Counted from the first letter of the stretch, positions 16,732 through 55,896 are shown. The stretch: 64,000 nucleotides of DNA from a virus (IMGVR_UViG_3300032046_000001:232551-296550), one strand, 5' to 3'. Notes: generated by a model not told the origin, from the sequence alone. Numbers and translations are program-made.

Positions 16732-16749
16732 AAACTATGATACTAAAAA

Positions 16750-24773: not shown

Positions 24774-25430
24774 TTAAATATTTTGATGATATTTATCATT
24801 TAAAATTTTTCGTATACTACTTATTGCGTGTTGTTCATATTTTTCTCTAAATAATTCAGTACGAAAAATATGTTTTTTTGGATCTAAAAGAGTTAGTAAA
24901 AAATTTATTCTGGCATTTTTACTGAATGATAATCCATATTCCTTTTCAATATTATCATCATATTGATTGAAAGTTTCTTCATCAGAACCTAATATTGAAA
25001 AATCAATGTCATACATATAATTATATTCAATTATTGGTTTGGTTGATGTTCCATATTTTGTTTCTAAAATTAAATCAGCAACTAAATCTGGATTTAATAT
25101 CAAGTCTAACTCATATATTGATCTTACTGCTTCTATAGAACTTAATAATTCTGATTCTCCATTATAAGTAGTCATGATAAAATCATGCCAGAATATGGCG
25201 TACTCCATTTCTTCACGATTTGGAAGGGTTTGCTTGATACTATCTAATAGATCAATACTTCTCATAATATGATCAATATTATGATAATGTCTTCTATGAG
25301 AAGTATATGCCGATATTAATTGATTTAAATATGCGGAGTGACTAAATCCACCACCATATAACGCAACACTTTGACATAATCTTGAAAATCTTTCTCTAAA
25401 TGATGATATATCCATTATGACCACCACCAA
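24774..25430 (-). CDS. possible HD-domain phosphohydrolase-like protein
   Basis: Segments RRHYHNIDHIMRSIDLL and FWHD. Weak call. Translationally coupled to the CoaD-CoaE gene. Confidence 0.35.
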   Translation of the reverse strand: MVVVIMDISSFRERFSRLCQSVALYGGGFSHSAYLNQLISAYTSHRRHYHNIDHIMRSIDLLDSIKQTLPNREEMEYAIFWHDFIMTTYNGESELLSSIEAVRSIYELDLILNPDLVADLILETKYGTSTKPIIEYNYMYDIDFSILGSDEETFNQYDDNIEKEYGLSFSKNARINFLLTLLDPKKHIFRTELFREKYEQHAISSIRKILNDKYHQNI

Positions 25431-26581
25431 TATCGCTGAATTGTCTCAGCTAATTTATGAAAACATTCTCGATCAAATTCAGTATCTGATACATTTGAAT
25501 TATTGAATGTGATAATATCTCCGTGACCATCTTTTTTAATTTGATCTTGTATTCGTTTTCTAAGTTCTCCTGATGTTAATTGACTATTGATTCTTTCTTC
25601 GATTTGTTTATCAGTTAAAGATCTTGATCTTAATCTTTCATATTGTTCACTTGGGCTTGTCTCAACCAAGATCACATTGTTATTAGATAGATAACCCAAA
25701 TTAAAATCTAATATTTTATTACCGAATAAATAGGCACAATTCAGAAGAATAATACAATCTTTATTTTTCTGTAATTTCTCTCGATAGAGCATGAATAGAG
25801 CTTCATCTACTAATTTATATAGTTTAATCAATCTTTCAGGATTAGGGAAAACTTTCTCAGCCAGGATATGAGAATCTATCAAACACATACAATTATTATT
25901 AGAAAATATAATATCATCACCAAATTCGTCAACAATGTTTCGACGAATTTGTGTATAATATGGTTGAAATCTCTGTGTATAAATCTCATGAACAAGATTA
26001 TCGAAGTCTATATTAATCATCTTTAATGAACCAGCTTCAATTATCTTTTTTGTGACGAATGACTTACCACAACCGATACCACCTACAACTCCAATAATTA
26101 TTTGTCCAGAAATTTTTTTCTCAAGAGCTTGTTTGACATATAAAGGTACAAACTCATGAATGAATCCTTTGTGTTGTTCTAATACTTTAACAACAGAAGA
26201 ACTCACATTTTCATACTTCTGTTCCGAAAATAAAAGTAAAGTCTCGATATTGGGAGCTTGTGATTTACCAACTTTATATAGATTTGTTTCATACTGATAA
26301 TCTTCTTGATTTCGGACACTTTTCACAATGATATCTATACCGTTTAAGATCGCATAATCAACAAGCAACCCATCAAATGCTGATACTTCAACATTAGGTA
26401 TATGAGCAACTGATTTACGGATAAGTTCCAATCTCTCATATAAATTAAAAACATACTTCTTTGTTTCATTAATTCCAACGGCAACATGTACTTGTTCAAA
26501 TAGTTTAGCTGCTCGTTCGATTGTATTTATATGACCAAAATGGATCGGGTCTCCACTCAGAGCAAACATAGCTTTTGACAT
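25415..26581 (-). CDS. coaDE: bifunctional phosphopantetheine adenylyltransferase / dephospho-CoA kinase (CoaD-CoaE fusion)
   Basis: N-terminal FALSGDPIHFGHINTIERAAKLF...NVEV...RNQEDYQYETNL (CoaD-like T/HxGH and R..DFEYE). C-terminal IIGVVGGIGCGKSFV...IDFDNL...ILVETSPSEQYERLRSR (CoaE-like P-loop). Confidence 0.7.
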   Translation of the reverse strand: MSKAMFALSGDPIHFGHINTIERAAKLFEQVHVAVGINETKKYVFNLYERLELIRKSVAHIPNVEVSAFDGLLVDYAILNGIDIIVKSVRNQEDYQYETNLYKVGKSQAPNIETLLLFSEQKYENVSSSVVKVLEQHKGFIHEFVPLYVKQALEKKISGQIIIGVVGGIGCGKSFVTKKIIEAGSLKMINIDFDNLVHEIYTQRFQPYYTQIRRNIVDEFGDDIIFSNNNCMCLIDSHILAEKVFPNPERLIKLYKLVDEALFMLYREKLQKNKDCIILLNCAYLFGNKILDFNLGYLSNNNVILVETSPSEQYERLRSRSLTDKQIEERINSQLTSGELRKRIQDQIKKDGHGDIITFNNSNVSDTEFDRECFHKLAETIQRYWWWS

Positions 26582-31511: not shown

Positions 31512-32450
31512 CTATTCTTTGGTTGGGAATGTCTGTTTGTAGAGCATTGAACTCCCTACTATGGGACCGAAATTCTTACTGGTTAGTGCATCATAAGGTG
31601 CCAACATAAAAGTATTATTTGGACCCTTTGCCATTTCTTCGTACATCTTGTACTGTTCTAATGCTAATACAGCCGGTGTTAAGGAGGCACCGACAATGGC
31701 ATTGGCTTTGGCTGTAGCTCTCGCTCTTTCTACTTGGGCTTCGCCTTCCTTAATGGCAATCTCTGTCTGTCGTTCAGCTTCTCTTGTCCGCGCTTGGGCT
31801 TCTGCGGCCTTCTGTAAATCATCAAGTTCGGCATTTTTAATAGCCGTTTTCTTGTTCTTGATCTTTTCCTCATAATCCAGGTCAGATACCTTAAGGCCGG
31901 TGGTGATTATCGGGAATCCCTTACCCTTTATTTCAGCAGCAATCTGTTTGTTTAATTCATTCTCAATGGGTCCGCGTAGATCCTGGAGATTGTCAGTATT
32001 GTATGGTGCTACAACACTTCGTGTAGTACTCCGAATGGTACTTTGTATTACGGCCTTGTAGAAGGTGGCGAATTCAACTTTGTATATCTTGGAGTCACTT
32101 GTGGGAGTTGGTTTCACTATACTCAGAATTTTCTTAACAGACTCATCATCCCGTAGGTCAAACTGGCCAAAGTACTTCACATCCATGATTACAGGTATCT
32201 GATCTTTACAGAGGATGTGCATCGTGTCTTCATCAAACTTATTGATGGAACCGTCGATATAAATGGTAAGATCACGGCCATATGCGTGGTAGTTGCCATC
32301 ACGAATGATATTGAAGTTTCCACCAGAATCCTTGATAACAATTACTGTTGCTGGAGGCACGGTCTTACCCATACAACCGAAGATCGAAGGAAGGACACAT
32401 AAAATCAAAGCCATAAATAGTACATATTTCAGAGATTGTTTCGGATTCAT
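31512..32450 (-). CDS. SPFH/band-7 (stomatin/HflC-like) domain lipoprotein, GC-richer
   Basis: Signal peptide with lipobox LPSIFGC. C-terminal Ala/Glu-rich coiled coil AELDDLQKAAEAQARTREAERQTEIAIKEGEAQVERARA. Confidence 0.6.
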   Translation of the reverse strand: MNPKQSLKYVLFMALILCVLPSIFGCMGKTVPPATVIVIKDSGGNFNIIRDGNYHAYGRDLTIYIDGSINKFDEDTMHILCKDQIPVIMDVKYFGQFDLRDDESVKKILSIVKPTPTSDSKIYKVEFATFYKAVIQSTIRSTTRSVVAPYNTDNLQDLRGPIENELNKQIAAEIKGKGFPIITTGLKVSDLDYEEKIKNKKTAIKNAELDDLQKAAEAQARTREAERQTEIAIKEGEAQVERARATAKANAIVGASLTPAVLALEQYKMYEEMAKGPNNTFMLAPYDALTSKNFGPIVGSSMLYKQTFPTKE

Positions 32451-32513: not shown

Positions 32514-32948
32514 CTAAAGAGTATCTAGATACTTCTGGAACTCATCACGAGCTTTTTGATTCTTTTCTCGAATCTTGTCGTTCAGTTCCATTTCACGTTT
32601 TTCTTTCATATCCTTAATGAGTTGTTCAATTGTATTCGGATCAGATGTTTTGTGATCCTCCAATTGTTTTTGATTATATTGCTCGGATTGTGTACCAACA
32701 CCGCTGTCATATGATTTCACTGTTACATCATGAAGGAATATTCTGGAAGCGATAAATATGATCGCACCAGCGGTCAGAAGTACTTTAATAACAGAATAAA
32801 TAACAGCCAGGACATTATACCATGATTCATTAACTTCAAAAATGGTGAACAATTTCTTAATTCCCCATTTCGAAGTCATAAAGATGATAATCATAAATAT
32901 GACCGATGCCACAAACCAAATCAGCGGTTGAATATGAAAATTTAACAT
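32514..32948 (-). CDS. two-TM membrane protein, possible NfeD-like partner of the SPFH protein
   Basis: Two hydrophobic segments, then a charged C-terminal tail. Immediately upstream of the SPFH gene. Confidence 0.45.
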   Translation of the reverse strand: MLNFHIQPLIWFVASVIFMIIIFMTSKWGIKKLFTIFEVNESWYNVLAVIYSVIKVLLTAGAIIFIASRIFLHDVTVKSYDSGVGTQSEQYNQKQLEDHKTSDPNTIEQLIKDMKEKREMELNDKIREKNQKARDEFQKYLDTL

Positions 32949-43753: not shown

Positions 43754-46537
43754 TTATTTTATTTTCTCTCCAAGTAGGATCTTATCTATTATTCCTGAAT
43801 ATTGACCAACTTCAAAAAGACCTTTTATGATACTTCTTTTTGGATCTGAAAAACCAAGACTTAGAATCCATGATTCGAATGCCGGAACTTGTTGTATACT
43901 ATGCCATTCTGGTTTAACATTCTCTCTATTTTCAACCAATCTCCATTTTGTATAACCACTCCACATTAATTGACTAATGACAGCTTCAATATGAATATGA
44001 TGAATCTTTCCATTATTATTATAAATTTTGAATAATTTTTCTGCCATTTCACCAGGAATTTGATTATCACTAAAATGATGAAAAGCATCACAAGCAACCG
44101 AAAGATCAGCAACAATATCATCTTGTTTTAAATCACCATCAGATTTTGCACCTCTAATATTTGCAACACCTGACGTATGAAATGTTCTTAGAATCAATTG
44201 AGTAGACCGTTCACCTAATGTTTGTGCTGCAATAATACCAATATATTTACTATTTAAAATCTTGTAAAGATTACCATAACATTTGTGACAAATTTTATTA
44301 CTTCTACAATATATCGGTGATCTCAAAAGAATGATTTTACCAATTAGATTCTTATAATTTTCTTTTGTAATTTCAACATATTCATTATTATCATTTAAAT
44401 AATAACGATATAATAACATCTCGGCTTTTTGTACAGAATCGACATTGATAGTTAAGTGATCTCTTGTTCCACAATCTTCTAAATCAAGATCCTTTTGAAG
44501 ATTAACACAAGAAAAATTTAATTTTCTTGAAAGATAGCCAGATTCCCCTGTATTTAAAGCAACATCTAATAATCCTTTTCTACATCCGTATGTTGATATA
44601 AAAAATTCTTCAGGTGTTAAACCATCTAATAAACTCGATTTAACTGGTGTTGGTATAATCTCACCTTTAAAGTTCGAAATAAAACCTCTTGATAGAATAA
44701 TTTGTCTTGCTTGATCCCATGTTCCTCTAGATCCAGAACTAATCATATAAGAATAGTTAAAATTTTCTTTCAAAAAGTTTTCTGTTTCCAGACTGGAAAT
44801 TTTATTTAACTGGGTTACGATATTATCAGATTCATATAATTCTTTCTTAAGCGAATCATCTTTTAATTCGAATGAATCCAATGACATTGTTGGACCAAAT
44901 AAGGTAGCGTATTTAAAACCGCAATTTTTAATCTGATCTAAAATTTCAGCTAGGATCGTGTAGTCATATTTTGATTTAATATCTTCTAAAATATTTAATA
45001 GTTCTTTCTTTGATATTATCTTATCAATTATAGGATAATCATTCGGTAAACAATCATTGAATATTTTTCTACTTTCTGTAATTTTTTGACCTTTACAAAC
45101 GACCATCTTTTTCAATTTTGGAAATTGATTTGAAGTTAATGCGTATATACCAAGAATCATATCTTGAGAATGAGTAGTTGTTAATAATCCATTTGCGGGA
45201 TTACTCAAATTTTTAGTTATTAAAAATTTATCATAGACTTCTTGTTTTGATTCTTCTGATATAGGCACATATACAGCCATCTGATCACCATCAAAATCTG
45301 CATTAAAACAACCACAAACTAACGGGTGAATCTTGATTGTATTATTCCCATGAATTCGATATACTGTTTCATTATTATCATCTTTCTTTTCGAAAATGAC
45401 AGAATTATTATTATCTAATTTTATTTTGAAACCTAACATACCCAATCTGTGAAGAGAAGGTTGTCGATTAATAATACACACTTGAGGATGTTGTTCAAAA
45501 TATTCTTTGACAAATTCGAATAAATAATATGATTTTGTAAGAATCGTCTGATCTAATATTTGAATCGCACTATTAAGAAATTTAACTATTCCGCGATATG
45601 TCATTTCTTTTGCGATGTCAATTTTAAATAATTCAAGAATCATACTATAAGGTAAAATACACTCATCTAATTTCAACATTGGATCTGGTGTGATCACAGC
45701 CCTACCTGAAAAATCAATTCTCTTACCTAATATATGTCCTCTGATTAAACCATCTTTTTCTGACATTGACGATAAAATATAACCATATAGTTCATTCACA
45801 TCTTTTTGAAGTTGATGATAATATTGATAATATATTTTTTTATCATTCGCAATATCATAGTTTGTATTGGCCATAATTTCTTTTTTGGTTAATAACCTGA
45901 TATAGAATCTATTTATTTTATCTACGATTTGGTTACGATTATTTTTTTCTGTGATTTTTGATGCAGGACGTAAATCAGCAGGTAAGACAATAACTTCATT
46001 AATCAATACGTTATGAATATTGTCATATATATATTTCCATTTTGGATCATCCAACTTATATTTTGAAGTTTCATACAATAATTTTATAACAGCTCCCATT
46101 TTATCCCATCTTTCAGAATCAGATGGAATATTATTAGGATCATCTGTCACTAAATATTTTTCACCTTTTTTATATAATATACTTCTTTCATTTGAAATTA
46201 ATATATCAACCAGGGATTTAATTTTAGAACCACATAAACTGGAAATCAAATCGTAAAAAATTGGATTCATAACTGGTAAAGGAAGTTTGATTTTTGCAAA
46301 TCTTTTTCTTCTTTCACCACAATTAGTTATTTCCACACCACATATTTTACAAACTTCACCTTCACCAGAAAGTCCATAAAAAGTTCCACATTGACATGTA
46401 TAATTTTTTACTGGACCAAAAATCTGTTCAGAAAATAAACCATCTTCTGTAAATCTGCCACGATTATTAATTATTTTTGAAGTTTTGATTTCTTTCAAAT
46501 CTTCACAAAAGTCATGTATATCTAAGAGTTTCGACAT
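43754..46537 (-). CDS. rpoC: DNA-directed RNA polymerase beta-prime subunit, compact bacterial type (927 aa)
   Basis: N-terminal Zn ribbon CQCGTFYG...CKICGVE. Catalytic NADFDGDQMAVYVP. Bacterial-like throughout but about 480 aa shorter than E. coli RpoC. Confidence 0.9.
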   Translation of the reverse strand: MSKLLDIHDFCEDLKEIKTSKIINNRGRFTEDGLFSEQIFGPVKNYTCQCGTFYGLSGEGEVCKICGVEITNCGERRKRFAKIKLPLPVMNPIFYDLISSLCGSKIKSLVDILISNERSILYKKGEKYLVTDDPNNIPSDSERWDKMGAVIKLLYETSKYKLDDPKWKYIYDNIHNVLINEVIVLPADLRPASKITEKNNRNQIVDKINRFYIRLLTKKEIMANTNYDIANDKKIYYQYYHQLQKDVNELYGYILSSMSEKDGLIRGHILGKRIDFSGRAVITPDPMLKLDECILPYSMILELFKIDIAKEMTYRGIVKFLNSAIQILDQTILTKSYYLFEFVKEYFEQHPQVCIINRQPSLHRLGMLGFKIKLDNNNSVIFEKKDDNNETVYRIHGNNTIKIHPLVCGCFNADFDGDQMAVYVPISEESKQEVYDKFLITKNLSNPANGLLTTTHSQDMILGIYALTSNQFPKLKKMVVCKGQKITESRKIFNDCLPNDYPIIDKIISKKELLNILEDIKSKYDYTILAEILDQIKNCGFKYATLFGPTMSLDSFELKDDSLKKELYESDNIVTQLNKISSLETENFLKENFNYSYMISSGSRGTWDQARQIILSRGFISNFKGEIIPTPVKSSLLDGLTPEEFFISTYGCRKGLLDVALNTGESGYLSRKLNFSCVNLQKDLDLEDCGTRDHLTINVDSVQKAEMLLYRYYLNDNNEYVEITKENYKNLIGKIILLRSPIYCRSNKICHKCYGNLYKILNSKYIGIIAAQTLGERSTQLILRTFHTSGVANIRGAKSDGDLKQDDIVADLSVACDAFHHFSDNQIPGEMAEKLFKIYNNNGKIHHIHIEAVISQLMWSGYTKWRLVENRENVKPEWHSIQQVPAFESWILSLGFSDPKRSIIKGLFEVGQYSGIIDKILLGEKIK

Positions 46538-46542: not shown

Positions 46543-46968
46543 TTATATCCCCAATTTGTGTAAATTAAAAAAATTTGATATTTTACCAATTATTGAGTTC
46601 TCTTTTTTCTCTACCTTTTTCATATATTCTTGATGATCATATGGTTCATACTCTATATAATTAAATGGAGTGAAATAACAATTATTTAAATTATAAGTTC
46701 TGATTAAATTTTCAATTAATTTAATTAAATCATTTGATAATACTTTATATTTGACATTAGCTGATAAACAAAATAAATCAGTATATGGATCGGCATTACA
46801 ATGATCAGCATCTAATTTAATACTAATTAATTTATTTTTGCCATCTGTTATTCTAACTGAATATTTATCAATTATATAATTTGGATCTATTTTTGTTATT
46901 CTGTAAATTTTATTATTATGAATCATTCTCTCAGGTACAAGTTTTTTTGCTATTACAAACTGTTTCAT
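46543..46968 (-). CDS. hypothetical protein, candidate E2/UBC-like partner of the adjacent E1
   Basis: DADHCNADPYTDLFCLSANV resembles a degenerate HPN...C UBC active-site segment. Starts in the ATGA overlap with the E1-like gene. Low confidence. Confidence 0.3.
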   Translation of the reverse strand: MKQFVIAKKLVPERMIHNNKIYRITKIDPNYIIDKYSVRITDGKNKLISIKLDADHCNADPYTDLFCLSANVKYKVLSNDLIKLIENLIRTYNLNNCYFTPFNYIEYEPYDHQEYMKKVEKKENSIIGKISNFFNLHKLGI

Positions 46969-47861
46969 TATGCTGCACCAGACTCTGGAAGAAGATTTAT
47001 AATATAATTATTTTGAGTCTGTGTAATTGAAATGATGTAATAGAGTTCAGGTTCATTTGAATTATTTATTAGATGTGACATTGTTGAAATGATATCATTA
47101 GCTGATTGAATTGAATTTTTGGGAATTTTTCTAATTGGATATTTATTAGAATCACCAATTGTTATTAGAACATCTTTATTTCTATTCTCCTGAATTATAT
47201 CAGTTACATTCTCTTCAAAATTTAATAATTTCTTAGATGCTTCATAATCTATAATCATGTTTCTATTATTATATTTTTTCTTGATATCATTGGATACTTC
47301 ATCTAAATAATCAAGAGATATTTCTTTCACTATTTGATTATCAATCATATAATTAATAAAACCACTTTGTAGAAAAGATGTTGCTATCATTGTTGCTTTT
47401 CTTAAATCATTTTTTGATAACAGTGTTGTATATCGGCCTTCATAATTCTTATCATATGTTATATTTTTTCTACAATCTACAACAAGATATCTGGACGTGA
47501 TATACAATCTAACATCTATTTTATTTTTGCGATTATAAACAAAATCTCGACAATCAATTATTAAATCTGAATATGGGAGTTCCGTAATTTCTTCTTCATA
47601 TCTAGTTGTTAATATTTCAACATCTATATTACTTTGATCTTTTATGATATCATGAAGAACTGTTGTTTTATATTTTCCAACATCACTCTTTCTATATATT
47701 GAATTATATGTATTCTTCATTTCAACTCTATCATAATCAACCAAGATTAATTTTTGTAAATTATCCAGTTCGGATAATGATTGAGACAAAAAACTACCTA
47801 TGGTACCAAGACCAATAACTGCTACTGTTTTTATAGAAGATTCCTCCACAATTTTTTTCAA
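46968..47861 (-). CDS. ThiF/MoeB/E1-like adenylyltransferase
   Basis: TVAVIGLGTIGSFLSQSLSELDNLQKLILVDYDRVEMKNTYNSIYRKSDVG carries the Rossmann GxGxxG plus the D.D.VE.(S)N..RQ-like motif. Confidence 0.65.
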   Translation of the reverse strand: MKKIVEESSIKTVAVIGLGTIGSFLSQSLSELDNLQKLILVDYDRVEMKNTYNSIYRKSDVGKYKTTVLHDIIKDQSNIDVEILTTRYEEEITELPYSDLIIDCRDFVYNRKNKIDVRLYITSRYLVVDCRKNITYDKNYEGRYTTLLSKNDLRKATMIATSFLQSGFINYMIDNQIVKEISLDYLDEVSNDIKKKYNNRNMIIDYEASKKLLNFEENVTDIIQENRNKDVLITIGDSNKYPIRKIPKNSIQSANDIISTMSHLINNSNEPELYYIISITQTQNNYIINLLPESGAA

Positions 47862-47981
47862 TATCTAAAATTGGTGGGTAATTAAAGTTAAATAAAATAT
47901 ATTTTTAATTTGTTATTTAAATAAATTTTTTATTCCCATAAAAAAATAAAAAAATAAATTAGGATAATTATAGGATAAGGG

Positions 47982-48007
47982 AAGGGATGGAATTTCTTCC
48001 ATCCCTT
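47982..48007. terminator. 11-bp hairpin (aagggatggaa-tttc-ttccatccctt)
   Basis: Perfect inverted repeat 50 nt 3' of the 48057 gene end on the - strand. Followed on + by ttttccactt and on - by an AU-rich tract. Confidence 0.35.
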
Positions 48008-48056
48008 TTTCCACTTATGTACTACACCCGGTATATCATATTATAATATTGGGTTA

Positions 48057-48611
48057 TTAACCCTTGCGATCGGCAGGCTTCGTGAACTCCAGGGTCAAAT
48101 CAGTCGATGTCAAAACGTAGTCGTATGCTACCTCGGTCGTACCGTTGACCAAAGCTTTGGAACCGGCAGCGATATTGAACGCTCCACTGAGCAAATTGAA
48201 TACTTCCTGGACTGCATGTCCTACGGTGTCTTCGATCTCCTGTTTGTTGGTACCGCAGGTAACGACAATCTTGGTGTTGACACAGCCGTCATTGGCATTG
48301 GTGACAGTAAACGTACCGGAAACCGCAGCAAGGGCAACCCTGGTAAAATGGGCAATGAGAAGTTCCACCAAAATAGCCTTGGGTTGTTTTCCCAGACCGG
48401 ACATACCATTTTCCTCGGCCAGCGTGAGCAGATCGGTAACAGACATTGCATTCAATTGTTCCCGGCTAAGAACCTCGGATTTCTCGACCATATCGTTCTC
48501 AATTACTTTGGCAATCATCTCGACGGTCTGTCCGTCCAATCCAGTGATCCCACGTCCAGCAGCGATTTGAAGAAGTTCGGCCTTTGACTTACCATTCAGT
48601 GCTTGATTCAT
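48057..48611 (-). CDS. GC-rich hypothetical protein (184 aa) with two N-terminal HeH/Rho-N-like motifs
   Basis: KAELLQIAAGRGITGLDGQTVEMIAKVIE and VTDLLTLAEENGMSGLGKQPKAILVELLI. AAGGAG SD. Local GC far above background, so many spurious overlapping ORFs on both strands. Confidence 0.5.
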   Translation of the reverse strand: MNQALNGKSKAELLQIAAGRGITGLDGQTVEMIAKVIENDMVEKSEVLSREQLNAMSVTDLLTLAEENGMSGLGKQPKAILVELLIAHFTRVALAAVSGTFTVTNANDGCVNTKIVVTCGTNKQEIEDTVGHAVQEVFNLLSGAFNIAAGSKALVNGTTEVAYDYVLTSTDLTLEFTKPADRKG

Positions 48612-48784
48612 AAAAATAATTCTCCTTTTGGAAATAGATTAGGTTCACTAAGTGAATCCTTTGAGATAAAATACAGCGGCGACATTAATTATTTTTTTCT
48701 ATCTCCTAAATAATTATAGCACCTCCCTTTGGATTTATCCATGAAGTTAGAGAGTTAAGACAACTCTCTCTTGATGGATTCTAT

Positions 48785-49051
48785 TTACTGAGTAAATTCC
48801 TGAAGCTTTTTCACTTTTCCCTCAATCCAATCAATACGATTCTTGGCATCCTGTTGACCAGCCTTAGCAGCCGAAATCTGATGATTTAGTTTCTGCACTT
48901 TTCGTGTCAAGGATTCAATTCGTTGTTCCTCCATTTGCGATGCCTGTTGAAGTTTCTTCTCAGCAACTGCAAACATTTTCAATGCGTTACCAAGAACTGT
49001 GGGAGCAACATTAATACCAAAATGAGATAATAAAATATAAAACCAGTCCAT
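48785..49051 (-). CDS. small coiled-coil protein (88 aa)
   Basis: N-terminal hydrophobic stretch, then QQASQMEEQRIESLTRKVQKLNHQISAAKAGQQDAKNRI. Confidence 0.4.
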   Translation of the reverse strand: MDWFYILLSHFGINVAPTVLGNALKMFAVAEKKLQQASQMEEQRIESLTRKVQKLNHQISAAKAGQQDAKNRIDWIEGKVKKLQEFTQ

Positions 49052-49095
49052 TACAGACCTCCTTTACAATATTAAAAAGTACGAATTGTACCTTT

Positions 49096-49115
49096 CACAT
49101 ATTTATTATATATAG
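49096..49115 (-). promoter_or_regulatory. variant of the promoter-like motif (CACATATTTATTATATATAG), 44 nt upstream of the 49051 start
   Basis: Similar to the 20-mer. Confidence 0.35.
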
Positions 49116-49167
49116 ATATAATCGTATATACAAGAATTTAAATATTTGGGTGCTTTGTATAATTAAA

Positions 49168-49869
49168 CTATACTGGGAACTGTTTGGCTAAAACTTCACC
49201 TGTGAGAATATCGAAATCATTCTCACAGGTGGTATCGAGTTGACCAAGGATACAGATCTTGTAAAATCGACACAACACAATCCATGCCGCTCCCATGTTT
49301 GCGAATAACAATTGTGGTTCTGCTTGATGCAATGCCTCACATCCGAGACGCTGAGGGTGTTGTCCATCACCAACGGATATCTCTTCATGGTATCTGGTAA
49401 TTGACGCAGTGTAGTTTTGTCCTGCAATCCGAACGTTTGTCAAAACATCGCCGGTGTAGAATCCATTACCCCCAGAAATTAAAACTACATTTTGCAGGGT
49501 AGCAACTTTTTCTGCAATCAACGCTCTGGTATCATGATTGTCAACACACACTAATACAATATCATCTTCTTGGATGATACTACTAATGTTGCTCTCACTG
49601 AGATATTCAGGAACCGAATGGATAGTTAAATCATACTTCTGCATGAGTTCGGTGGCTTTAATCTCGGCTTTATTACCGAAGTTATAAAAATCCTGTCTCT
49701 CCCGATTACGCTGCTCGAAGCTATCTCCGTCTACGATAGTTACCTCGAAGGTGTCAGCCTCTTCGCCTTCTGCTGGTTGCGGATGATAATAATTGAGGAA
49801 TTGGCACAACGGATCAAGTAATTTAGTACCAATACCACCAGCACCTATAACTTTAATCGACCGATTCAT
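49168..49869 (-). CDS. ThiF/MoeB/E1-like adenylyltransferase (233 aa)
   Basis: IKVIGAGGIGTKLLDPLCQFL. TIVDGDSFEQRNRERQ. LVCVDNHDTRALI. SGGNGFYTGDV. Confidence 0.7.
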   Translation of the reverse strand: MNRSIKVIGAGGIGTKLLDPLCQFLNYYHPQPAEGEEADTFEVTIVDGDSFEQRNRERQDFYNFGNKAEIKATELMQKYDLTIHSVPEYLSESNISSIIQEDDIVLVCVDNHDTRALIAEKVATLQNVVLISGGNGFYTGDVLTNVRIAGQNYTASITRYHEEISVGDGQHPQRLGCEALHQAEPQLLFANMGAAWIVLCRFYKICILGQLDTTCENDFDILTGEVLAKQFPV

Positions 49870-51133
49870 ATGCTGAAATCTCCTCTTTTGTCATAATGAT
49901 TACTCCTTCAGAGTCAATCATGTTGCCATTAGAATCATATGATAATTCAAAATCGCGGTTGTTGTTTGGTGTGTGTTCACCATAACATCCCATAGTTGTC
50001 AATAATAAGTCATCGACCAATCCACCTTCCATTGCCTGAATAGCAATATTACGATAATGACACTTTGGACAGATGGTATAATCAATTAGTGGATAATAAT
50101 CTGTATCATCACTACCATAACAATCAGGACGGGCAATTGGAGATGTTGGTGAATATTCAGGAGTTTTAGCAGGACTTGGAAGATACTTCGTTTCCGACGG
50201 AACATATGTGTTGTTTGATTGGGAAGAACATTTGATAAGTTTACCACCAACGAATTTATATACTACATCGGGTGTATAAACCATGTTCTCATACCATTCT
50301 ATGGGAACCTCAACAGCATCCATATCAACGTCTAAACTAAAATGAAATTTAGTTGCAACCGATTGCGCTGTTACATCTGTCATATTATGAGTCGATACTT
50401 TAGATGCGGCATAATCTTCCCATACAGCACCCGAAGACACATACTTGGTTTCTTCCCGACTTGTGATTGTAACATCAAGATATCTTAATATTTCCTCCTC
50501 TTTAAGTTGAAATCTATTGCCGTTAATAACAATCGCTGCCGTGACCGATGGGGTATCTGTATTTATGTGTCCAAACACAATATGAATACCATCCAACTCA
50601 CCCTCACTACCTTTGTCGGTACCACTATGAAACGCCGACATTGCACCACCGTGTGAGTGTAGTGTTCCAACATACATAAAATCTTTCGGTGGACTGGAAT
50701 TCTTCCAATCCGTTGACGCGCCCGAAATTTTCTGATTGGGAACATCAAATAAATAAAACTCGGTATATGGATTATAGAAAATCCGTATACCAGCTTCAGA
50801 TTTGTACGTTTCATAGATCTGTTTGAAAAACTTAAGACCTTGAGCTAACAAATCTTTGTGAATCTTCGGTATCTTCATCTCCCCAAACGGTTGTAGTTTG
50901 GGGAGATGACTGATTCCATTAACCTTAGTTAAACTTCTCAATAATTGTTGATTCTTTAGAACAAAGTTGCCGTTACCGGCAACGATGTATAAAAGATCCT
51001 GGTCTTCAGGCAAGACATAATCCTTCGGTAATATAATAACAGGAATTTCACCAAATTTCATATTAATTATCCTCACTAACATTTGGAATTGTTGATGGAT
51101 AATATCCATCAGAAAACGTATGAGTATTCCCAT
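49853..51133 (-). CDS. JAB/MPN (JAMM-like) metallopeptidase-domain protein with a 220-aa C-terminal extension
   Basis: GTLHSHGGAMSAFHSGTD matches HxH-x(8)-S-xx-D, the JAMM motif with one extra residue. Its 3' end overlaps the E1 start. Confidence 0.6.
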   Translation of the reverse strand: MGILIRFLMDIIHQQFQMLVRIINMKFGEIPVIILPKDYVLPEDQDLLYIVAGNGNFVLKNQQLLRSLTKVNGISHLPKLQPFGEMKIPKIHKDLLAQGLKFFKQIYETYKSEAGIRIFYNPYTEFYLFDVPNQKISGASTDWKNSSPPKDFMYVGTLHSHGGAMSAFHSGTDKGSEGELDGIHIVFGHINTDTPSVTAAIVINGNRFQLKEEEILRYLDVTITSREETKYVSSGAVWEDYAASKVSTHNMTDVTAQSVATKFHFSLDVDMDAVEVPIEWYENMVYTPDVVYKFVGGKLIKCSSQSNNTYVPSETKYLPSPAKTPEYSPTSPIARPDCYGSDDTDYYPLIDYTICPKCHYRNIAIQAMEGGLVDDLLLTTMGCYGEHTPNNNRDFELSYDSNGNMIDSEGVIIMTKEEISAYESVD

Positions 51134-53477
51134 TTACAAAATTCGGGAGACTCTCATAAACAACATGTGAATGGTTTTTAGATAATCTGGGGTCTAAAAT
51201 ACCATATCTCTTAAAATCTGGATTATTCTGTGAACTTACCACAGCCTTTGAACGGAAAGATCCTGTTTTCACAAAAACAGGATCAATTAACATATACAAC
51301 TTTCCGAGGTATGTGTTGTCATCATTGAAAACGAATAAATTATCACTTTTGGTACATAGATCACCTGTCTGCCAAGGAATCTTGGCCAAGTTTATTGTTT
51401 CGGGTGTTCTGGCTGATGTAACTACGTTGAAGTTATTGGTTAAATCTTCAACAGTAATTGTCAGACCATTTCCACACAATATAAGAGGCTTTTCACCATC
51501 GACAATAAATGCGTCAATTCTGTTTATCACCTTTTTCGGAAATCCTAATATTCCAGGATTCTTAGCTTGGATAAGACCAACTTCAATACCATTCAGAGAC
51601 TTGGATGCTTTCCTAATAGATCCGATGTAAACTCTACCGTTTGATAGGTTGATATATTGAGAACTAGTTGTTTCTTCACCACATCGTAATTCAAAATTCA
51701 AATAACCATTTGATCTGGCAAATGCTGTAATCGTCCAGATTTTACCAATTGTATCAGGATTGTTCCAGTTAGGACATACAACCTCATCACCAACACTGAA
51801 ATTGATATCGACATCATATGATGGTATATGTAACTTGGTACCATCATTCGTCAATATATCCTCAAGTGCTGTTTCGCGGAAGAAAGTACTGCTCCAGATA
51901 TTGGATGAGTCGTTACTGGAAAAAATGCCTATGCCTTTTACAATACGAAAATCTCGATCGGTTATAATCTGATCCAAAAATCTGAATGTTCTGGATTGAG
52001 TAATCCTTGGGTCATTTGCTTCAAAAATTGAGAAATCACCATTATAGATTGAATCTACAGAGATTCCTCGCTCATCACCATCACCACCGAAGAATATGTG
52101 GAGAATGTTGTAAGAATTATTCTGAATACGAAGCATTCTCCCGGTGAAGTAGGTCCGATATTGATTATTAAAGATCACATAATCCTTACCAGAAACCAAT
52201 TCAGTATCGCCAGCCTTCACAGAATCGATTACGTCATATGTACCATCCAATGCCAGAAAGAACTTTGAACCGATGACGAATTCAATCGTATTATCTCTGG
52301 CTAACCTAATCTTATCTACAACCTCATAGGTATTCATAGATTTGATTTTGATTATTGTGCCTGATGATACGGTTTTACCATCAACTGTTAATGATTGTAA
52401 ATAATTCGTTCTTTGAGCGGCAACATCTGTTTCCCATTGGGCTAATAAGGCTGGTGTTAACTCAACAGTAATTTTTTCATTATTGAGATTAACCAGTTCC
52501 ACCTGTTTAGGTGTATTAAAATTTCCCCTAATGGTATCAATATACCAATCTGCTTCTTCATATATTAATTTGTCGCCAATACTTACGACGCTCTCAACTA
52601 ACCTGAAATTTTGATATATGGTTGATCCATTACCTCCAGATAGTTGTTCGTCAAGTGGTACAACAAACACTCTCTCAAAGGTTGGAACTGTTCTAGAGAC
52701 AACAAAAGTATCAATCTCCTGATACAATGTTTTATCGTGCATTATCAATGGAATGTTAAATCCGAATGTTGGTTTTTGACTAGCCATTGACCAAGCCAGA
52801 AAGGAATTCATCGGCGGTGTATTCTTGTATTTATCATGACGACAGCGATATTCCGCTGCAAATGGTGCTGCCCAATACAGAGCAATTAATTCTTCAACAG
52901 CAGATGACAGAGTATGAGTTTGTTTTGACCATGAACGTTTGTTACCACCAAAACAAACTTCATTGCCACTACTAACATTAAATAAATTTGCATATCCCAA
53001 ATAGTCGCCGGATGCTCCCAATGGATGATTTCGGAAAAATACCCGACAATAGGGAACTTCAAATACATCCTTTTTTTCCTGAACGAAGAGAAGAAACACT
53101 ATATATGGTAATTGGATTCGGAGCGAGTACGGTATTTGTTGCCCTTCCAGCAACGATTCTAGTCCTAGTGCCGCCTGTCCACTCTTCTTGGTTGTTCTTG
53201 TTTCTTCAACAAAATCCCAGTCAAACTTCAAATGTCTTGATCTTGGAGCTTCCTCAATAACCAGAACTCTTGCACCACCTGAGCATGGAATATTTAATCT
53301 ACAATTCCTGGGCAAAACATGACAGTCAGATCCCAACTGACTGGTAATTCGGGCAATATAATCTGCTGTTCGTATTAATTTTTTCCTGAAGACTGGTTGG
53401 GCTTCACCATTTTCTCCAATAATGGATTCAACAAACGATGTAGTTTCTTTGTCGATTATTAACGTGGGATTTGTCAT
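51063..53477 (-). CDS. large hypothetical protein (804 aa), moderately GC-rich
   Basis: Long ORF overlapping the JAB gene start. No confident domains. Confidence 0.5.
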   Translation of the reverse strand: MTNPTLIIDKETTSFVESIIGENGEAQPVFRKKLIRTADYIARITSQLGSDCHVLPRNCRLNIPCSGGARVLVIEEAPRSRHLKFDWDFVEETRTTKKSGQAALGLESLLEGQQIPYSLRIQLPYIVFLLFVQEKKDVFEVPYCRVFFRNHPLGASGDYLGYANLFNVSSGNEVCFGGNKRSWSKQTHTLSSAVEELIALYWAAPFAAEYRCRHDKYKNTPPMNSFLAWSMASQKPTFGFNIPLIMHDKTLYQEIDTFVVSRTVPTFERVFVVPLDEQLSGGNGSTIYQNFRLVESVVSIGDKLIYEEADWYIDTIRGNFNTPKQVELVNLNNEKITVELTPALLAQWETDVAAQRTNYLQSLTVDGKTVSSGTIIKIKSMNTYEVVDKIRLARDNTIEFVIGSKFFLALDGTYDVIDSVKAGDTELVSGKDYVIFNNQYRTYFTGRMLRIQNNSYNILHIFFGGDGDERGISVDSIYNGDFSIFEANDPRITQSRTFRFLDQIITDRDFRIVKGIGIFSSNDSSNIWSSTFFRETALEDILTNDGTKLHIPSYDVDINFSVGDEVVCPNWNNPDTIGKIWTITAFARSNGYLNFELRCGEETTSSQYINLSNGRVYIGSIRKASKSLNGIEVGLIQAKNPGILGFPKKVINRIDAFIVDGEKPLILCGNGLTITVEDLTNNFNVVTSARTPETINLAKIPWQTGDLCTKSDNLFVFNDDNTYLGKLYMLIDPVFVKTGSFRSKAVVSSQNNPDFKRYGILDPRLSKNHSHVVYESLPNFVNGNTHTFSDGYYPSTIPNVSEDN

Positions 53478-53506: not shown

Positions 53507-54490
53507 TTAATTTCTCTTATCTGCATGGATTAGATCATTATAATCGTATGCAGATGTCATGATACAACTCGTCCAATTACATCCCTCACAAACTTTATTT
53601 TGGTCATATTGTAAATTATTTTTCAATTCATCCAGATTCATTAAATATTCATCAATTGTCATTGATGGTGTTTTCAATCCTCTGATTCTTAAACATAACC
53701 TAACCATACCATCTGCATCGATAACAATATTATCCAGTGATTGAACATGGCATTTGAAATTATAGGGTAAATTTTCATATAATATCTTCAAACTTTGAGG
53801 CATATGAATATTATAGTTTTTTGCCTGTTCTAATATTTCTTTCAATTCAGGTGTTTTGTGGACTATCAAGTCGCTATTTTTTTCTATTCCAGCAAAATCA
53901 TAATATTTATTTTTATAAGCATCAATAAAAGATATTACACTATTGATACCATGACCAGTTAAAAGTTCCAATGTTTTAATTAAATATTTATAATTTCTGC
54001 TATCACATGTTACTTCCGCAACAGGATCTTTTATTCTGTCTTTATATTTTAATAAACAATTCAATCCATAGAGACTTTTAAAATATCTGTCCTTATCATA
54101 CTGTTCACTGAATATTATGGGGTCGATTGAAGTTGTAAAACCCATTACTTCTCCAACTTCTGAAAAAAATCGATCTAATAAATCTGTACATGTACCATTA
54201 GAAATTATCGTGTATAAAATACTGTTTTCATTACAGTATTTTATAATATCAATTAAGTCATTATGAAGTAATGGTTCACCTCCCATAAAAATATGAAAAC
54301 ATTCTGGATTATTAATTTTCATCAAGTCCAGTATTTTCACTATATTAATATATTTAATTTGATACTTATTAAAATAATAAATATTTGGATATGGAGCATC
54401 GAGATAATATTTTGCAATCCTACAATACTCACAGCTTAAATTACATTGTCTATTCAAAAACCAAGTCATGACCTTTATATCTTTTATCAT
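53507..54490 (-). CDS. radical SAM enzyme with a C-terminal Cys-rich (SPASM/twitch-like) region
   Basis: NRQCNLSCEYC. MGGEPLL. ISNGT. C-terminal CLRIRG...CEGCNWTSC. Confidence 0.7.
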   Translation of the reverse strand: MIKDIKVMTWFLNRQCNLSCEYCRIAKYYLDAPYPNIYYFNKYQIKYINIVKILDLMKINNPECFHIFMGGEPLLHNDLIDIIKYCNENSILYTIISNGTCTDLLDRFFSEVGEVMGFTTSIDPIIFSEQYDKDRYFKSLYGLNCLLKYKDRIKDPVAEVTCDSRNYKYLIKTLELLTGHGINSVISFIDAYKNKYYDFAGIEKNSDLIVHKTPELKEILEQAKNYNIHMPQSLKILYENLPYNFKCHVQSLDNIVIDADGMVRLCLRIRGLKTPSMTIDEYLMNLDELKNNLQYDQNKVCEGCNWTSCIMTSAYDYNDLIHADKRN

Positions 54491-54900: not shown

Positions 54901-55896
54901 TTAAAAGGTGTATGTCAAAGCACCAATGCTCTGGTTCTGACTAAGTTGCCAATCGGCATAGTGTGTCAGTTCGAGGTCGAGATTTTTGATTCCAGTTGGT
55001 AAAGTAATCGCTACTGCATGACCATTATCGAATGGGAAATCAATATCAGCCATTATTGATTTCGAATCAATTTCTCGATAATTATAGTCAACTGTTACCT
55101 CACCTATTCCTAACTTGGCACCAGCCAACCAGGACACAACATTATCACCAACAGTCACAGCATAATCACCGTATATAGATGATGTATCATAGCCGATTTC
55201 AGCCATTGCCTCCCTATAGGCATTCCCTTCATAGAAATCATAATATCCGACTGCTCCAACAATATATGCCTTATCGCCGATCTGGATGCCGATCTGACCA
55301 CCATTCATAACATCATTGAAATATCCACCAGTGGCAAAACACGAAAGAGTCCGGTCATCATTAACAGCGAAATAGTTGGATGCAACACCTTCTCCACGAA
55401 AGACATCAGTATCGAACAAAAGACCAGAATCACCAGGAGTCTGAAATGGTAATTCGCTTTTACCGAGATGTAATTCAAGACCTGGAAACAAATCCGGGGT
55501 AATATTCAAATTGGCAACATCAATCATGGCATCATCTTGTTGTTGATCACCAACTTGTTGGGTTCCAGTATTAAGTCGAAAATACAAATCGGCCTGATTA
55601 TCCAAAGCAATACCGAGGCCAAACCGGATGCGATAATCCTGGGAATATTCATTGAGTTGGTGATCATACAATGTGCGATAACGGGCATCACCATCAACAA
55701 AGAATTTAGAAGGATCTGTAACGCCGGGATTTTCTCTCTCGAAAATTTCCCACTCTTCCTCAGCGGTTTCAGCATAGACGGTATCCTCAGTTCTGAGACT
55801 GGTGGTTGTACCTTCTTCATAGGTGTTGAAAGCATAGACATTGATATGAGCAAAGAGCACCAACAATAAAACAAACACGACATAATACTTTTTCAT
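54901..55896 (-). CDS. outer-membrane beta-barrel protein (signal peptide, C-terminal Phe)
   Basis: N-terminus MKKYYVVFVLLLVLFAHINVYA. Alternating amphipathic strands. Ends ...IGALTYTF. Confidence 0.5.
   Translation of the reverse strand: MKKYYVVFVLLLVLFAHINVYAFNTYEEGTTTSLRTEDTVYAETAEEEWEIFERENPGVTDPSKFFVDGDARYRTLYDHQLNEYSQDYRIRFGLGIALDNQADLYFRLNTGTQQVGDQQQDDAMIDVANLNITPDLFPGLELHLGKSELPFQTPGDSGLLFDTDVFRGEGVASNYFAVNDDRTLSCFATGGYFNDVMNGGQIGIQIGDKAYIVGAVGYYDFYEGNAYREAMAEIGYDTSSIYGDYAVTVGDNVVSWLAGAKLGIGEVTVDYNYREIDSKSIMADIDFPFDNGHAVAITLPTGIKNLDLELTHYADWQLSQNQSIGALTYTF

Follow-up and report, generated by a model that had tools for sequence, protein, structure and literature searches.

The block at 46543..53477 of the window (the whole 64,000-nucleotide stretch of DNA that was analysed, which comes from an uncultured 312-kb phage) is probably a phage-borne ubiquitin-like protein-conjugation system. 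A sequence-only reading had placed a ubiquitin-like conjugation-type gene set between 46543 and 51133; the ORFs it named are all present where it put them on the minus strand, domain matches and conserved synteny bear the proposal out, and the gene set is both real and larger than was then supposed. The kit looks complete, comprising a ubiquitin-like protein (Ubl) with a DNA-binding head, two E1-like proteins, two E2-like proteins and one trimming peptidase (Table 1), and protein conjugation is its likeliest predicted function.

Table 1. Features of the conjugation-type module and its upstream neighbour, in window coordinates.
Feature	Coordinates	Strand	Basis or description
141-aa candidate UBC-like E2 (E2-prime)	46543..46968	-	H56-C-N58-x8-C67; coupled to ThiF1
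ThiF1, divergent E1-like, 297 aa	46968..47861	-	Pfam ThiF E 7.4e-13, 48.6 bits, aa 12-109 only
Ubl domain (aa 97-184 of 184-aa protein)	48057..48323	-	ThiS/MoaD/ubiquitin-type beta-grasp; end ...LEFTKPADRKG-stop
Ubl protein, N-terminal part	48324..48611	-	two helix-extension-helix (HeH; Rho_N/SAP/LEM-like) motifs and linker
88-aa protein, hydrophobic N-terminus and coiled coil	48785..49051	-	sub-threshold coiled-coil matches only
ThiF2, compact E1, 233 aa	49168..49869	-	Pfam ThiF E 3.9e-13, 49.5 bits
JAMM/JAB metallopeptidase, 402 aa	49853..51061 (ORF extends to 51133)	-	PRTRC_A; conserved JAMM motif
Beta-barrel array, C-terminal ~520 aa of 804-aa protein	51075..52625	-	SH3/KOW/Tudor/BAH-like small barrels
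E2 domain, aa 1-275 of 804-aa protein (ORF 51063..53477)	52653..53477	-	Prok-E2_D/PRTRC-B-like UBC
Radical SAM/SPASM protein	53507..54490	-	Pfam Radical_SAM 1.1e-8; conserved upstream neighbour

Synteny, which had been suggested as a check, proved to be extensive. The gene order, radical SAM–E2–JAB–ThiF–Ubl–ThiF–E2'–RNAP beta', recurs in ~55 diverse viral contigs, where the module adjoins the RNAP beta'/beta and SbcCD-like genes, and it is kept across the whole block in ~55 of the 58 related loci even with E2 identity as low as ~23%; the module is therefore not a chance grouping. The genes are also tightly packed, with the E2 stop and the JAB start 1 nt apart, the 3' end of JAB overlapping the second E1 (as had been noted) by 17 nt, and 1 nt shared between ThiF1 and the 141-aa ORF. 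The 804-aa E2 family forms 335 clusters at 50% identity. A large and hitherto undescribed clade of giant phages has the module fixed in its core, where it is vertically inherited as one block of these jumbo phages rather than being a sporadic accessory cassette; none of the cultured phages carries it and no paper describing it was found in the literature searched. Membership of the 88-aa protein is doubtful, its gene occurring in 3 of the 58 loci and being restricted to the window's sub-clade.

The enzymes at the centre of the module are recognisable by profile search, as the sequence-only reading had anticipated for its E1 and JAB domains. Both E1-like proteins exceed the gathering score of Pfam ThiF, and JAB matches NCBIfam PRTRC_A over model positions 7-190 of 192 (E 2e-10, 40.6 bits; cut-off 101.8). 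ThiF2 also matches PRTRC_ThiF below the cut-off (1.3e-10, 41 bits; cut-off 144.75). Its conserved motifs comprise GxGGxG, D-G-D..N-x-E-R-Q, GNKA and CVDNHxTR, with the ATP motifs intact, and Cys177 is invariant among 49 members and aligns with a Cys that is likewise invariant in the ThiFs of PRTRC, Arash, D69 and Butyrivibrio. ThiF2 is thus predicted to be the active adenylating enzyme, with Cys177 as the candidate catalytic residue.

JAB consists of a PRTRC-A-like N-terminal alpha+beta domain, the JAB core and a Cys-rich C-terminal extension, the family ranging from 297 to 627 aa in total length (52 members). The residues E113, H159-S-H161, S170 and D173 (long-ORF numbering) make up an E..HSH..S..D set that is invariant in 52 relatives, the active site being intact; the HSH-x8-S-xx-D spacing originally described is indeed that of the window copy, whereas the relatives have the canonical x7. 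Against Pfam Prok-JAB the window copy gives 0.016, and the D69 and Arash homologues 1e-8 and 1.4e-7, respectively. The peptidase assignment therefore stands but the original start at 51133 does not: the most likely start is the ATG at 51061, since the first 24 residues of the longer ORF have no counterpart in the relatives or in the public gene call.

The principal E2, whose ORF lies just outside the region first noted, was overlooked originally, and for this reason what had been described as a split E1-E2/E1-JAB layout is, in its second half, really an E2-JAB-E1 operon. The N-terminal domain of the 804-aa protein was modelled confidently by AF2 (pLDDT 90.6), the model matching many UBC E2 structures, and hhalign against PRTRC_B gave P 1.8e-4. 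N167-x7-C175 is invariant in 101 sequences of ~24% mean identity (the Cys175 codon is at 52953..52955), the spacing of canonical UBC enzymes; the His-Pro of HPN is absent from this domain. From sequence and model, the protein is the predicted E2 partner of the JAB/E1 pair, and we propose that its beta-barrel array is a substrate- or partner-binding (E3-like) part.

The sequence-only reading found no recognisable Ubl, which did not hold, although its suggestion that the GC-rich product between the two E1s might be one did: this protein has a predicted beta-grasp fold (in a low-confidence model, pLDDT 61) and ends in KG instead of GG. This KG never varies in the family; short extensions follow it in 14 of 48 members, and one member is a head-to-tail di-Ubl. 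Relatives carry a single HeH motif in the N-terminal part, and their linker is of low complexity. In sequence the protein is weakly similar to known Ubls (P 1e-3 to 1e-2), with hhalign giving P 4.7e-4 against MoaD and 0.0026 against PRTRC_C, and hmmscan returned no match for the Ubl. It resembles the sulfur carriers MoaD/ThiS more closely than ubiquitin.

The Ubl gene is 49% GC, with a GC3 of 0.54 against ~0.15 for the backbone. An origin as an imported island was rejected because GC3 is raised clade-wide for both the Ubl gene and ThiF2, in 56/56 related loci; that of the Ubl is the highest of the block in most of these loci and exceeds that of RNAP beta' in all 56, which would fit strong expression of the gene.

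The second E1-like/E2-like pair is more divergent. ThiF1 (start 47849 and 293 aa in the public gene call) has a Rossmann/ThiF N-terminal half and a C-terminal domain of ~110 aa; across 50 aligned members GxGxxG and DCRD persist, Arg-Gln has given way to other residues (KNTYNS) and the Cys of ThiF2 and PRTRC has no counterpart at its position. Each of the 50 terminates exactly at G-[AGS]-[AS], the invariant C-terminus being ...ETGAA-COOH (ESGAA in the window), and the 80 homologues are all full-length (285-325 aa) except for a few truncated entries. The translational coupling of the 141-aa ORF to this gene was correctly noted, the shared nucleotide lying in the ThiF1 stop codon. The degenerate UBC-like HCN...C segment claimed for the ORF is moderately supported as an E2 signature: 47 relatives keep P12, H56, N58 and C67 without exception, mostly as HPN-x8-C, and the only two PDB chains matched by the family profile, aligned on HPN..C, are both E2 enzymes (1yrv, E 0.37; 5nkz, E 0.40), which together strengthen the assignment. 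One of the 47 members matches Pfam UQ_con (0.0059) and one PADLOC E2 (0.0027), and hhalign of the family with three manually entered E2 sequences gave P 0.0012 (reversed control 0.43). The assignment depends on a short motif and on sub-significant database matches, and the roles given below to this ORF and to ThiF1 are guesses.

In the mechanism that we propose, ThiF2 would adenylate the Ubl at its C-terminal Gly184 and accept the Ubl on Cys177 as a thioester, from which it would pass to Cys175 of the 804-aa E2; the beta-barrel array would bind the target or position the enzyme, and a lysine of the target would receive the Ubl. JAB would cleave after ...KG, maturing the tailed or tandem di-Ubl precursors of relatives (the Ubl of the window's phage would be mature already), and would also take the tag off again. 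ThiF1 and the 141-aa ORF may act as an accessory E1-like scaffold and a second E2 for the same Ubl, which is the weakest step. With HeH motifs on the tag, conjugation would either leave the target tethered to a module that binds nucleic acid or itself proceed on DNA or RNA.

A beta-grasp carrier with a C-terminal Gly beside a compact ThiF-type adenylase is also the arrangement of ThiS-ThiF, MoaD-MoeB and TtuB-TtuC, and the Ubl adenylated by ThiF2 might instead become a thiocarboxylate sulfur donor, for s2U34 in the phage tRNA-Lys(UUU) and tRNA-Glu(UUC), for DNA or nucleotide modification or for a cofactor, with JAB merely trimming the carrier and the adjacent radical SAM protein perhaps participating. 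This alternative, raised in part by the sequence-only reading, is distinctly improbable. Both tRNAs lie within the window, ThiF models are among the best NCBIfam matches of ThiF2, and the radical SAM gene is found upstream of E2 in 52 of the 58 loci (often with 1-4 small genes intervening), a neighbour which might hint at small-molecule chemistry; however, ThiF, MoeB and MoaA model scores are all far under the cut-offs, as are those of the radical SAM protein against PapB, viperin and MoaA. Unlike the sulfur-carrier pairs, whose Ubl ends in GG, the conserved block has no partner sulfurtransferase or synthase genes: rhodanese, cysteine desulfurase, a TtuA/NcsA/MnmA-type PP-loop enzyme, MoaE/MoaC and ThiG/ThiH are missing from it and from the Pfam families listed for the window (25 of 28 for its second half), the sole PP-loop match being a bona fide NAD synthase (2.7e-58). 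Sulfur carriers, moreover, work without an E2, yet the module has as fixed members two E2-like proteins, each with an invariant Cys, and HeH heads, poly-Ubl and variable tails are traits of conjugated tags. Conjugation is favoured because of these two Cys-bearing E2-like proteins, the JAB, the tailed Ubl precursors and the di-Ubl.

The closest known system is the PRTRC (ParB-Related, ThiF-Related Cassette; NCBIfam TIGR03735-03742), operon type 6d of Iyer, Burroughs & Aravind (2006), which was predicted by comparative genomics (PMC1779556) and for which no experimental study was found in the literature searched. The two share the order E2-like (B)-JAB (A)-ThiF, the extra N-terminal domain of JAB, a small ThiF with its conserved Cys at the same alignment position, an E2_D-type domain with N..C in a '...N[IV]xxxGxxCxG' loop and a small Ubl ending in ...KG, sometimes tailed (one copy of PRTRC protein C has a C-terminal extension). 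These likenesses, and the fact that PRTRC_A and PRTRC_ThiF are the best family matches, would suit a diverged maintenance cassette from a plasmid or ICE that does PRTRC's job for the phage genome. We consider this very unlikely indeed, as every score falls under the trusted cut-offs, hmmscan with PRTRC models B and C matched no module protein, and ParB, E and F homologues were not found in the conserved block or the window's Pfam listing. ThiF1, the 141-aa E2', the HeH heads and the 520-aa barrel array are all missing from PRTRC, the phage E2 lacks the type-6d marker His after the Cys, and the module sits in a lytic-type jumbo-phage core, its clade-wide GC giving no sign of recent import.

Host defence systems offer further parallels. 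Bil (BilABCD), for which protein conjugation has been demonstrated (PMC10557695), and the ubiquitination-like Bub (PMC11601596) likewise combine Ubl, E1, E2 and a JAB-type deubiquitinase in a single locus, but they belong to different families and have no HeH-fused Ubl or E2 with a beta-barrel array. Type II CBASS has E1, E2 and JAB chemistry in Cap2 (an E2-E1 fusion) and Cap3 (JAB), and there the activated C-terminus is the enzyme's own and not a free Ubl's (PMC10097602), which the invariant end of ThiF1 recalls. The module, in contrast, has no CD-NTase or effector, its E1 and E2 are encoded by distinct genes whose order is reversed, and ThiF1 lacks a conserved catalytic Cys. The same enzymes could nevertheless act in counter-defence or host takeover, on host proteins or on Ubl-based immunity such as Bil or CBASS, JAB stripping host conjugates or the phage Ubl inactivating the host factors to which it is attached; the target is the sole difference from our preferred explanation. 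JAB peptidases do reverse conjugation in CBASS and Bil (PMC10097602, PMC10557695). The best PADLOC matches of ThiF1, in its Rossmann half, are to Cap2-type E1-E2 models (9.1e-9), and the window holds other putative counter-defence genes (e.g. a set for NAD salvage and one with a SocA_Panacea domain). Even so, this reading appears unlikely: the PADLOC Bil and CBASS partner models fail to match the Ubl, JAB or E2, the only match to Bil being ThiF1 to BilD (E 0.001), and the reading is weakened by the vertical inheritance of the module as a core block. Anti-defence genes usually lie in patchy accessory regions. Because the module belongs to the vertically inherited core of the replication/transcription gene region, we think that it serves the phage's own cycle (DNA-/RNA-polymerase-associated machinery or host takeover) and is not a swappable anti-defence system.

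Comparison with the eukaryotic E1-E2 cascade is more distant, the sequence similarity being very low; the module has no RING/HECT E3, and neither a UFD nor a catalytic Cys domain was detected in it. The 141-aa family does have a literal HPN motif in common with eukaryotic E2s, and the two differing E1-like chains recall heterodimeric E1s, e.g. SAE1/SAE2.

Among phages, E2_D-JAB-ThiF triads of the same three families in the same order are found in Vibrio phage D69 (OZ195729.1) and Salmonella phage Arash (OQ632216.1, gp248c-gp246c), the latter also encoding its own RNA polymerase beta and beta' subunits (PMC10585845). The phage JABs have 'PKQK[VI]SxA' and long C-terminal extensions in common, but identity to the module is only ~26-30%, the D69 and Arash E2s are short (229-251 aa), and the neighbourhoods of these triads showed no HeH-Ubl, ThiF1 or small E2 of the HPN type. 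Their proteins are annotated as hypothetical or 'structural', a label that says little in the case of Arash since the proteome lists 116 proteins, metabolic enzymes included.

The window lies within a 312-kb contig from the AT-rich genome of a jumbo phage, and itself encodes a terminase, eight tRNAs and the phage's own RNA polymerase beta and beta' subunits, both unsplit. The tRNA genes lie at 13968..17502, on the minus strand throughout (Ser-UGA, His, Lys-UUU, Asp, Leu-CAA, Trp, Ile-UAU and Glu-UUC). [quoted passage not shown] Three of its genes are packed in the manner of an operon: a single nucleotide separates the 804-aa gene from that of the JAB peptidase, and the JAB and ThiF2 genes overlap by 17 nt. 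ThiF1 and the 141-aa ORF have one base in common.

Genes of the locus and of its flanks, in window coordinates
Feature	Coordinates	Strand	Length
Radical SAM/SPASM protein	54490..53507	minus	327 aa
804-aa protein (E2)	53477..51063	minus	804 aa
JAB peptidase	51061..49853, ORF open from 51133	minus	402 aa
ThiF2	49869..49168	minus	233 aa
Coiled-coil protein	49051..48785	minus	88 aa
GC-rich protein (Ubl)	48611..48057	minus	184 aa
ThiF1	47861..46968	minus	297 aa
141-aa ORF	46968..46543	minus	141 aa
RNA polymerase beta'	46537..43754	minus	927 aa

The 804-aa protein, which the sequence-only reading had missed when it listed candidate E2 proteins, joins an E2 of the E2_D type to an array of small beta-barrels, an identification made because of its alignment to E2_D-like proteins, its AlphaFold2 model and the matches of that model to Spt5 KOW arrays. 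The Pfam match to Prok-E2_D is weak (E 0.036 for the full protein, 0.01 for the N-terminal 289 aa). A word-indexed search gave five close relatives and no more, and an exhaustive profile search with the family returned 335 cluster representatives at E <= 1e-3, of which 170 reach E <= 1e-30; almost all are 800-900 aa long and matched over their full length. An alignment of 101 members (~24% mean identity) has just seven invariant columns; N167 and C175 are among them and lie eight positions apart, which is the Asn-Cys spacing of the HPN...C loop in UBC enzymes. Prok-E2_D matched 17 of 54 members in Pfam searches (best E 3.8e-6) and essentially no other family was found, the lone RNaseH_C match (0.0063) being confined to one member. 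A deep profile of residues 1-290 aligned almost end-to-end (201 columns, hhalign P 1.8e-4) with five sequences of protein B, the E2_D-like component of the ParB-Related, ThiF-Related Cassette (PRTRC), and also with the E2_D proteins of Vibrio phage D69 and Salmonella phage Arash (P 6.2e-4), the Cys loops being superposed in both cases. With a shallow profile the match to protein B was marginal (P 0.03); for the E2 and the Ubl alike, useful hhalign support came only from deep family alignments. The N-terminal domain has a UBC fold with a predicted catalytic Cys 8 residues after the conserved Asn. The AlphaFold2 model of the whole protein, built from the family alignment, is confident (pLDDT 90.6) and has Spt5 KOW arrays as its top Foldseek matches (E 3.4e-5); a PDB sequence search with the profile gave nothing useful (pelota at E 0.12).

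The degenerate UBC-like segment previously pointed out in the 141-aa ORF is sound as a motif, whilst its identity as an E2 falls short of proof. The window's HCN...C reads HPN-x8-C in the family, in which P12, H56, N58 and C67 are invariant and P57 occurs in at least 90% of members, the spacing being x8 as against the x7 of the UBC motif. When the family profile was compared with 177,635 PDB sequences, only two chains were returned, at E 0.37 and 0.40, both of them E2 enzymes and aligned on HPNvdpkTGe.C. Pfam UQ_con and the PADLOC 'E2' model each matched one of 47 members. An hhalign comparison with three E2 sequences entered by hand gave P 0.0012 (0.43 for the reversed-sequence control), and those with PRTRC protein B (P 0.24) and with the 804-aa E2 domain (P 0.019) were not significant. 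A UBC-like E2 is thus moderately supported by these motif and profile matches.

The sequence-only reading, looking for a GG-ended protein, had seen no recognisable Ubl and had offered the GC-rich product between the two E1-like genes as one guess; this product does have the features of the modifier, and ends in KG rather than GG. Its eight close homologues all share ...EFTKPADRKG, seven stopping there and one adding YNG. Over 48 distinct members the C-terminal domain conforms to GLVNGkeV..dYvLk.GD.LEFlKPAG[KR]KG with an invariant terminal KG, after which 14 members carry 1-5 further residues (C, R, DRKGC, VILTK or IDVGL). In one locus (L045:14338-15297, IMGVR_UViG_3300033146_002768) the gene is a head-to-tail duplicate of 319 aa, HeH-linker-Ubl-HeH-linker-Ubl, whose first copy ends in ...KPAGRKG directly before the ADET... 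of the second, and which looks like a natural precursor of the polyubiquitin type. The N-terminal helix-extension-helix (HeH, Rho_N/SAP-like) motif is constant in the family, occurring twice in the window's sub-clade and once elsewhere, and is followed by a low-complexity linker. The Ubl is predicted to consist of a nucleic-acid-binding head and a beta-grasp domain with a flexible C-terminal tail, its Gly exposed or made by processing.

Similarity of the Ubl to known carriers is weak yet points one way. The hhalign comparisons with E. coli MoaD (P 4.7e-4) and with ThiS (P 0.014) used sequences entered by hand; that with PRTRC protein C, a small Ubl, gave P 0.0026 from the deep family alignment and a non-significant 0.19 from a shallow profile, and hmmscan found no protein C match. 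Protein C ends in ...YEFREANYGDKG or ...FLRAAGAKG, and a ...[EA]-x-G-x-K-G terminus is common to it and the phage protein. When a profile of the Ubl domain was run against the PDB, the beta-grasp matches were not significant; a DUN1 FHA domain ranked first (E 1e-3), which we regard as sharing an 'NG..v..dy.L.dGD' motif and not as homologous. In three loci an extra ORF of 120-146 aa just upstream of the E2 gene (L017:9477-9914, L018:8283-8723 and L023:9591-9953) matches the HeH head of the Ubl and has an acidic/Pro-rich end without a beta-grasp.

The remaining enzymes had been recognised correctly as a JAB/MPN peptidase and two E1-like proteins. The E..HSH..S..D zinc site of the JAB is invariant in 52 members and corresponds to the JAMM signature E...HxH-x7-S-xx-D, the spacing between HxH and S in the window being x8, not x7. 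It follows a domain like that of PRTRC protein A (E 2e-10) at the N-terminus and is accompanied by a variable Cys-rich extension, the total length ranging over 297-627 aa in the family. Both E1-like proteins pass the Pfam ThiF gathering score, the match of ThiF1 being limited to aa 12-109. ThiF2 conserves GxGGxG, D-G-D..N-x-E-R-Q, GNKA and CVDNHxTR, and its Cys177, invariant in 49 members, aligns with a Cys that is likewise invariant in the ThiF proteins of PRTRC, Arash, D69 and Butyrivibrio; the protein has the GxGxxG, the Asn/Arg-Gln and Lys ATP motifs and the Mg-binding Asp of an E1, with Cys177 as the candidate catalytic residue. In ThiF1 the GxGxxG, Asn, Lys and DCRD motifs are retained, Asn-Ser replaces Arg-Gln, and there is no Cys at the E1 position. 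Its gene is the best conserved of the block, with 34-59% identity among distant members vs ~25% for the E2. All 50 ThiF1 members terminate exactly at ...[EL]-[PE]-E-T-G-A-A or a near variant (ESGAA in the window), with no extensions, and so strictly kept a free C-terminus suggests that the tail itself may serve as a substrate or form part of an active site. The C-terminal domain of ThiF1 (~110 aa) showed no similarity to the Ubl, PRTRC protein C, MoaD, ThiS or ubiquitin (P 0.08-0.4), which leaves a Ubl or UFD fused there unproven.

The whole block is kept in close relatives (E2 identity 63-76%) and far beyond them. Our sample of 58 loci comprised 52 from an IMG/VR scan with the family alignment, three from look-ups of encoding contigs and three close relatives; iterative searches of all ORFs placed the E2, JAB, ThiF2, Ubl, ThiF1, 141-aa homologue and beta' each in 55-56 of them, on contigs of up to 277 kb and in the fixed order rSAM – E2 – JAB – ThiF2 – Ubl – ThiF1 – E2' – beta', where rSAM is the radical SAM/SPASM protein and E2' the 141-aa product. 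No cultured relative was found among 50,697 phage records by megablast of the region or tblastn of the 804-aa protein, and a scan of 185,579 GTDB species genomes did not turn up the 804-aa family. Literature searches found no description of such a phage module, and a 2021 comparative review of 224 jumbo phages makes no mention of JAB, ThiF, E1-like or Ubl proteins.

Recent horizontal import of a 'GC-rich island' was considered and rejected, since the Ubl and ThiF2 genes have a higher GC3 than the beta' gene in all 56 of 56 loci from across the clade (by 0.154 and 0.075 on average, respectively); ThiF1 has no such excess. The raised GC belongs to the genes themselves and not to an insertion, and in the case of the Ubl gene probably reflects codon selection on a highly expressed gene. 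By consensus matches only, a promoter-like TGGATA-17-TATAAT and a strong Shine-Dalgarno sequence stand 5' of the Ubl gene and a hairpin 3' of it. Four further window genes (14592..15440, 31512..32450, 32514..32948 and 54901..55896) have a GC3 of 0.34-0.42 vs ~0.15 in the backbone and may be other highly expressed genes; the orthologue of 54901..55896 in a related locus (L002) is likewise GC-rich.

Among described systems the closest is the PRTRC cassette, an operon of type 6d with the order ParB-E-C-F-B-A-ThiF carried by large plasmids and ICEs (PMC1779556). The phage module has the B-A-ThiF order, related families and a KG-ended Ubl in common with it, but adds the HeH head, the barrel array, ThiF1 and the small HPN-type E2. 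Membership of PRTRC was rejected because trusted cut-offs were not reached and ParB, E and F are missing: ThiF2 scored 41 bits (E 1.3e-10) and ThiF1 24 bits with the PRTRC ThiF model (TIGR03736, cut-off 144.75), the JAB scored 40.6 bits with that of protein A (TIGR03735, cut-off 101.8) over 7-190 of 192 model positions, and the NCBIfam model of protein B did not match the 804-aa E2. ParB, E and F are absent from the conserved block of ~55 loci, and ParB also from the Pfam families listed for the window, which are all but three. Shorter E2_D-JAB-ThiF triads, unannotated, occur in the cultured phages Arash (gp246c-gp248c) and D69 (VPHD69_0301/0303/0304), and no Gly-ended Ubl was seen among the small ORFs beside them. 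The Arash E2 and ThiF are labelled 'structural protein' from a virion proteome which lists 116 proteins, metabolic enzymes included.

A cofactor pathway of the molybdenum or thiamine kind, one of the outcomes that would have refuted the earlier reading, was rejected as well. The best ThiF/MoeB cofactor matches scored 27-54 bits against cut-offs of 152-450, MoaA scored 23 bits against 284, and the partners of MoaD/MoeB and ThiS/ThiF (MoaA/C/E, ThiG/H/I) are found neither in the conserved block nor among the window's listed Pfam families. The PADLOC models of Bil and CBASS matched ThiF1 only (Cap2-type at 9.1e-9 over about 70-100 aa of the Rossmann half, BilD at 0.001) and not the Ubl, JAB or E2.

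The sequences show the identities of the domains, the conservation of catalytic residues, the precursor forms of the Ubl and the synteny; we infer the chemical steps, partners and target of the probable conjugation cascade as follows. The JAB would act as both maturase and deconjugase, the 804-aa E2 would receive the Ubl from ThiF2 and pass it to a target lysine, and ThiF1 and the 141-aa protein would form an accessory arm. We lean towards a part in the phage's own programme or in taking over the host, rather than a swappable anti-defence function, given that the block belongs to the core and lies amid genes for replication and transcription. A more elaborate scheme, which we consider rather unlikely, has an asymmetric E1 of eukaryotic style, ThiF2 being active and ThiF1 inactive with a C-terminal domain that recruits the 141-aa E2, and two E2 arms which attach the DNA/RNA-binding HeH-Ubl to the phage transcription/replication machinery or to host nucleoid proteins; as a variant of this scheme, the free ...ETGAA end of ThiF1 might itself be activated and conjugated, by analogy with the C-terminus of the CBASS CD-NTase. 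Were the asymmetric scheme true, it would amount to a viral, SUMO-like tagging of 'chromatin' fixed across a whole clade of giant phages.

The prokaryotic ubiquitin-like conjugation demonstrated to date (Bil, type II CBASS) is used by hosts against phages; here the full set is on the side of the virus. Tag, E1, E2 and peptidase are fixed rather than sporadic: hundreds of sequence clusters from uncultured jumbo phages have them as a core block with conserved synteny. They bring together features not seen in combination before, namely the nucleic-acid-binding head of the Ubl, its natural poly-Ubl and tailed precursors, the KOW/Tudor-like barrel array fused to an E2, and a further E1-like/E2-like pair in which the HPN motif occurs literally. 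The module is also a first tractable handle on PRTRC-type cassettes, which large plasmids and ICEs commonly carry and for which no experimental study was found in the literature. Its compact enzymes (ThiF2 of 233 aa, second E2 of 141 aa) suit the study of the origins of E1-E2 cascades, and five recombinant proteins suffice to test the predictions directly.

Several minor features of the region were also recorded. The radical SAM/SPASM gene, a constant upstream neighbour, has weak viperin/PapB/MoaA-like matches, and in distant relatives (L013 and L015) small genes, including one for a WYL_2 domain protein, lie between it and the E2 gene. The 88-aa protein encoded between the ThiF2 and Ubl genes combines a hydrophobic N-terminus with a coiled coil and is restricted to the window's sub-clade. 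Small ORFs of other kinds stand between the Ubl and ThiF1 genes in other clades, and two close relatives have a NUMOD4/HNH_3 homing endonuclease inserted at that point (L068:9428-10015, L069:8993-9580). Homing-endonuclease domains also occur several times in the window (NUMOD3, NUMOD4, HNH_3 and GIY-YIG). Finally, a CTP_transf_like (NMNAT-like) and CoaE fusion at 25415..26581 is part of a Preiss-Handler-type NAD+ salvage set, together with NAD synthase (2.7e-58), NAPRTase_N (9.6e-24) and isochorismatase/nicotinamidase (3.1e-19) encoded by ORFs within 25.4-43.6 or 54.9-63.5 kb, and this set may counter NAD-depleting defences.
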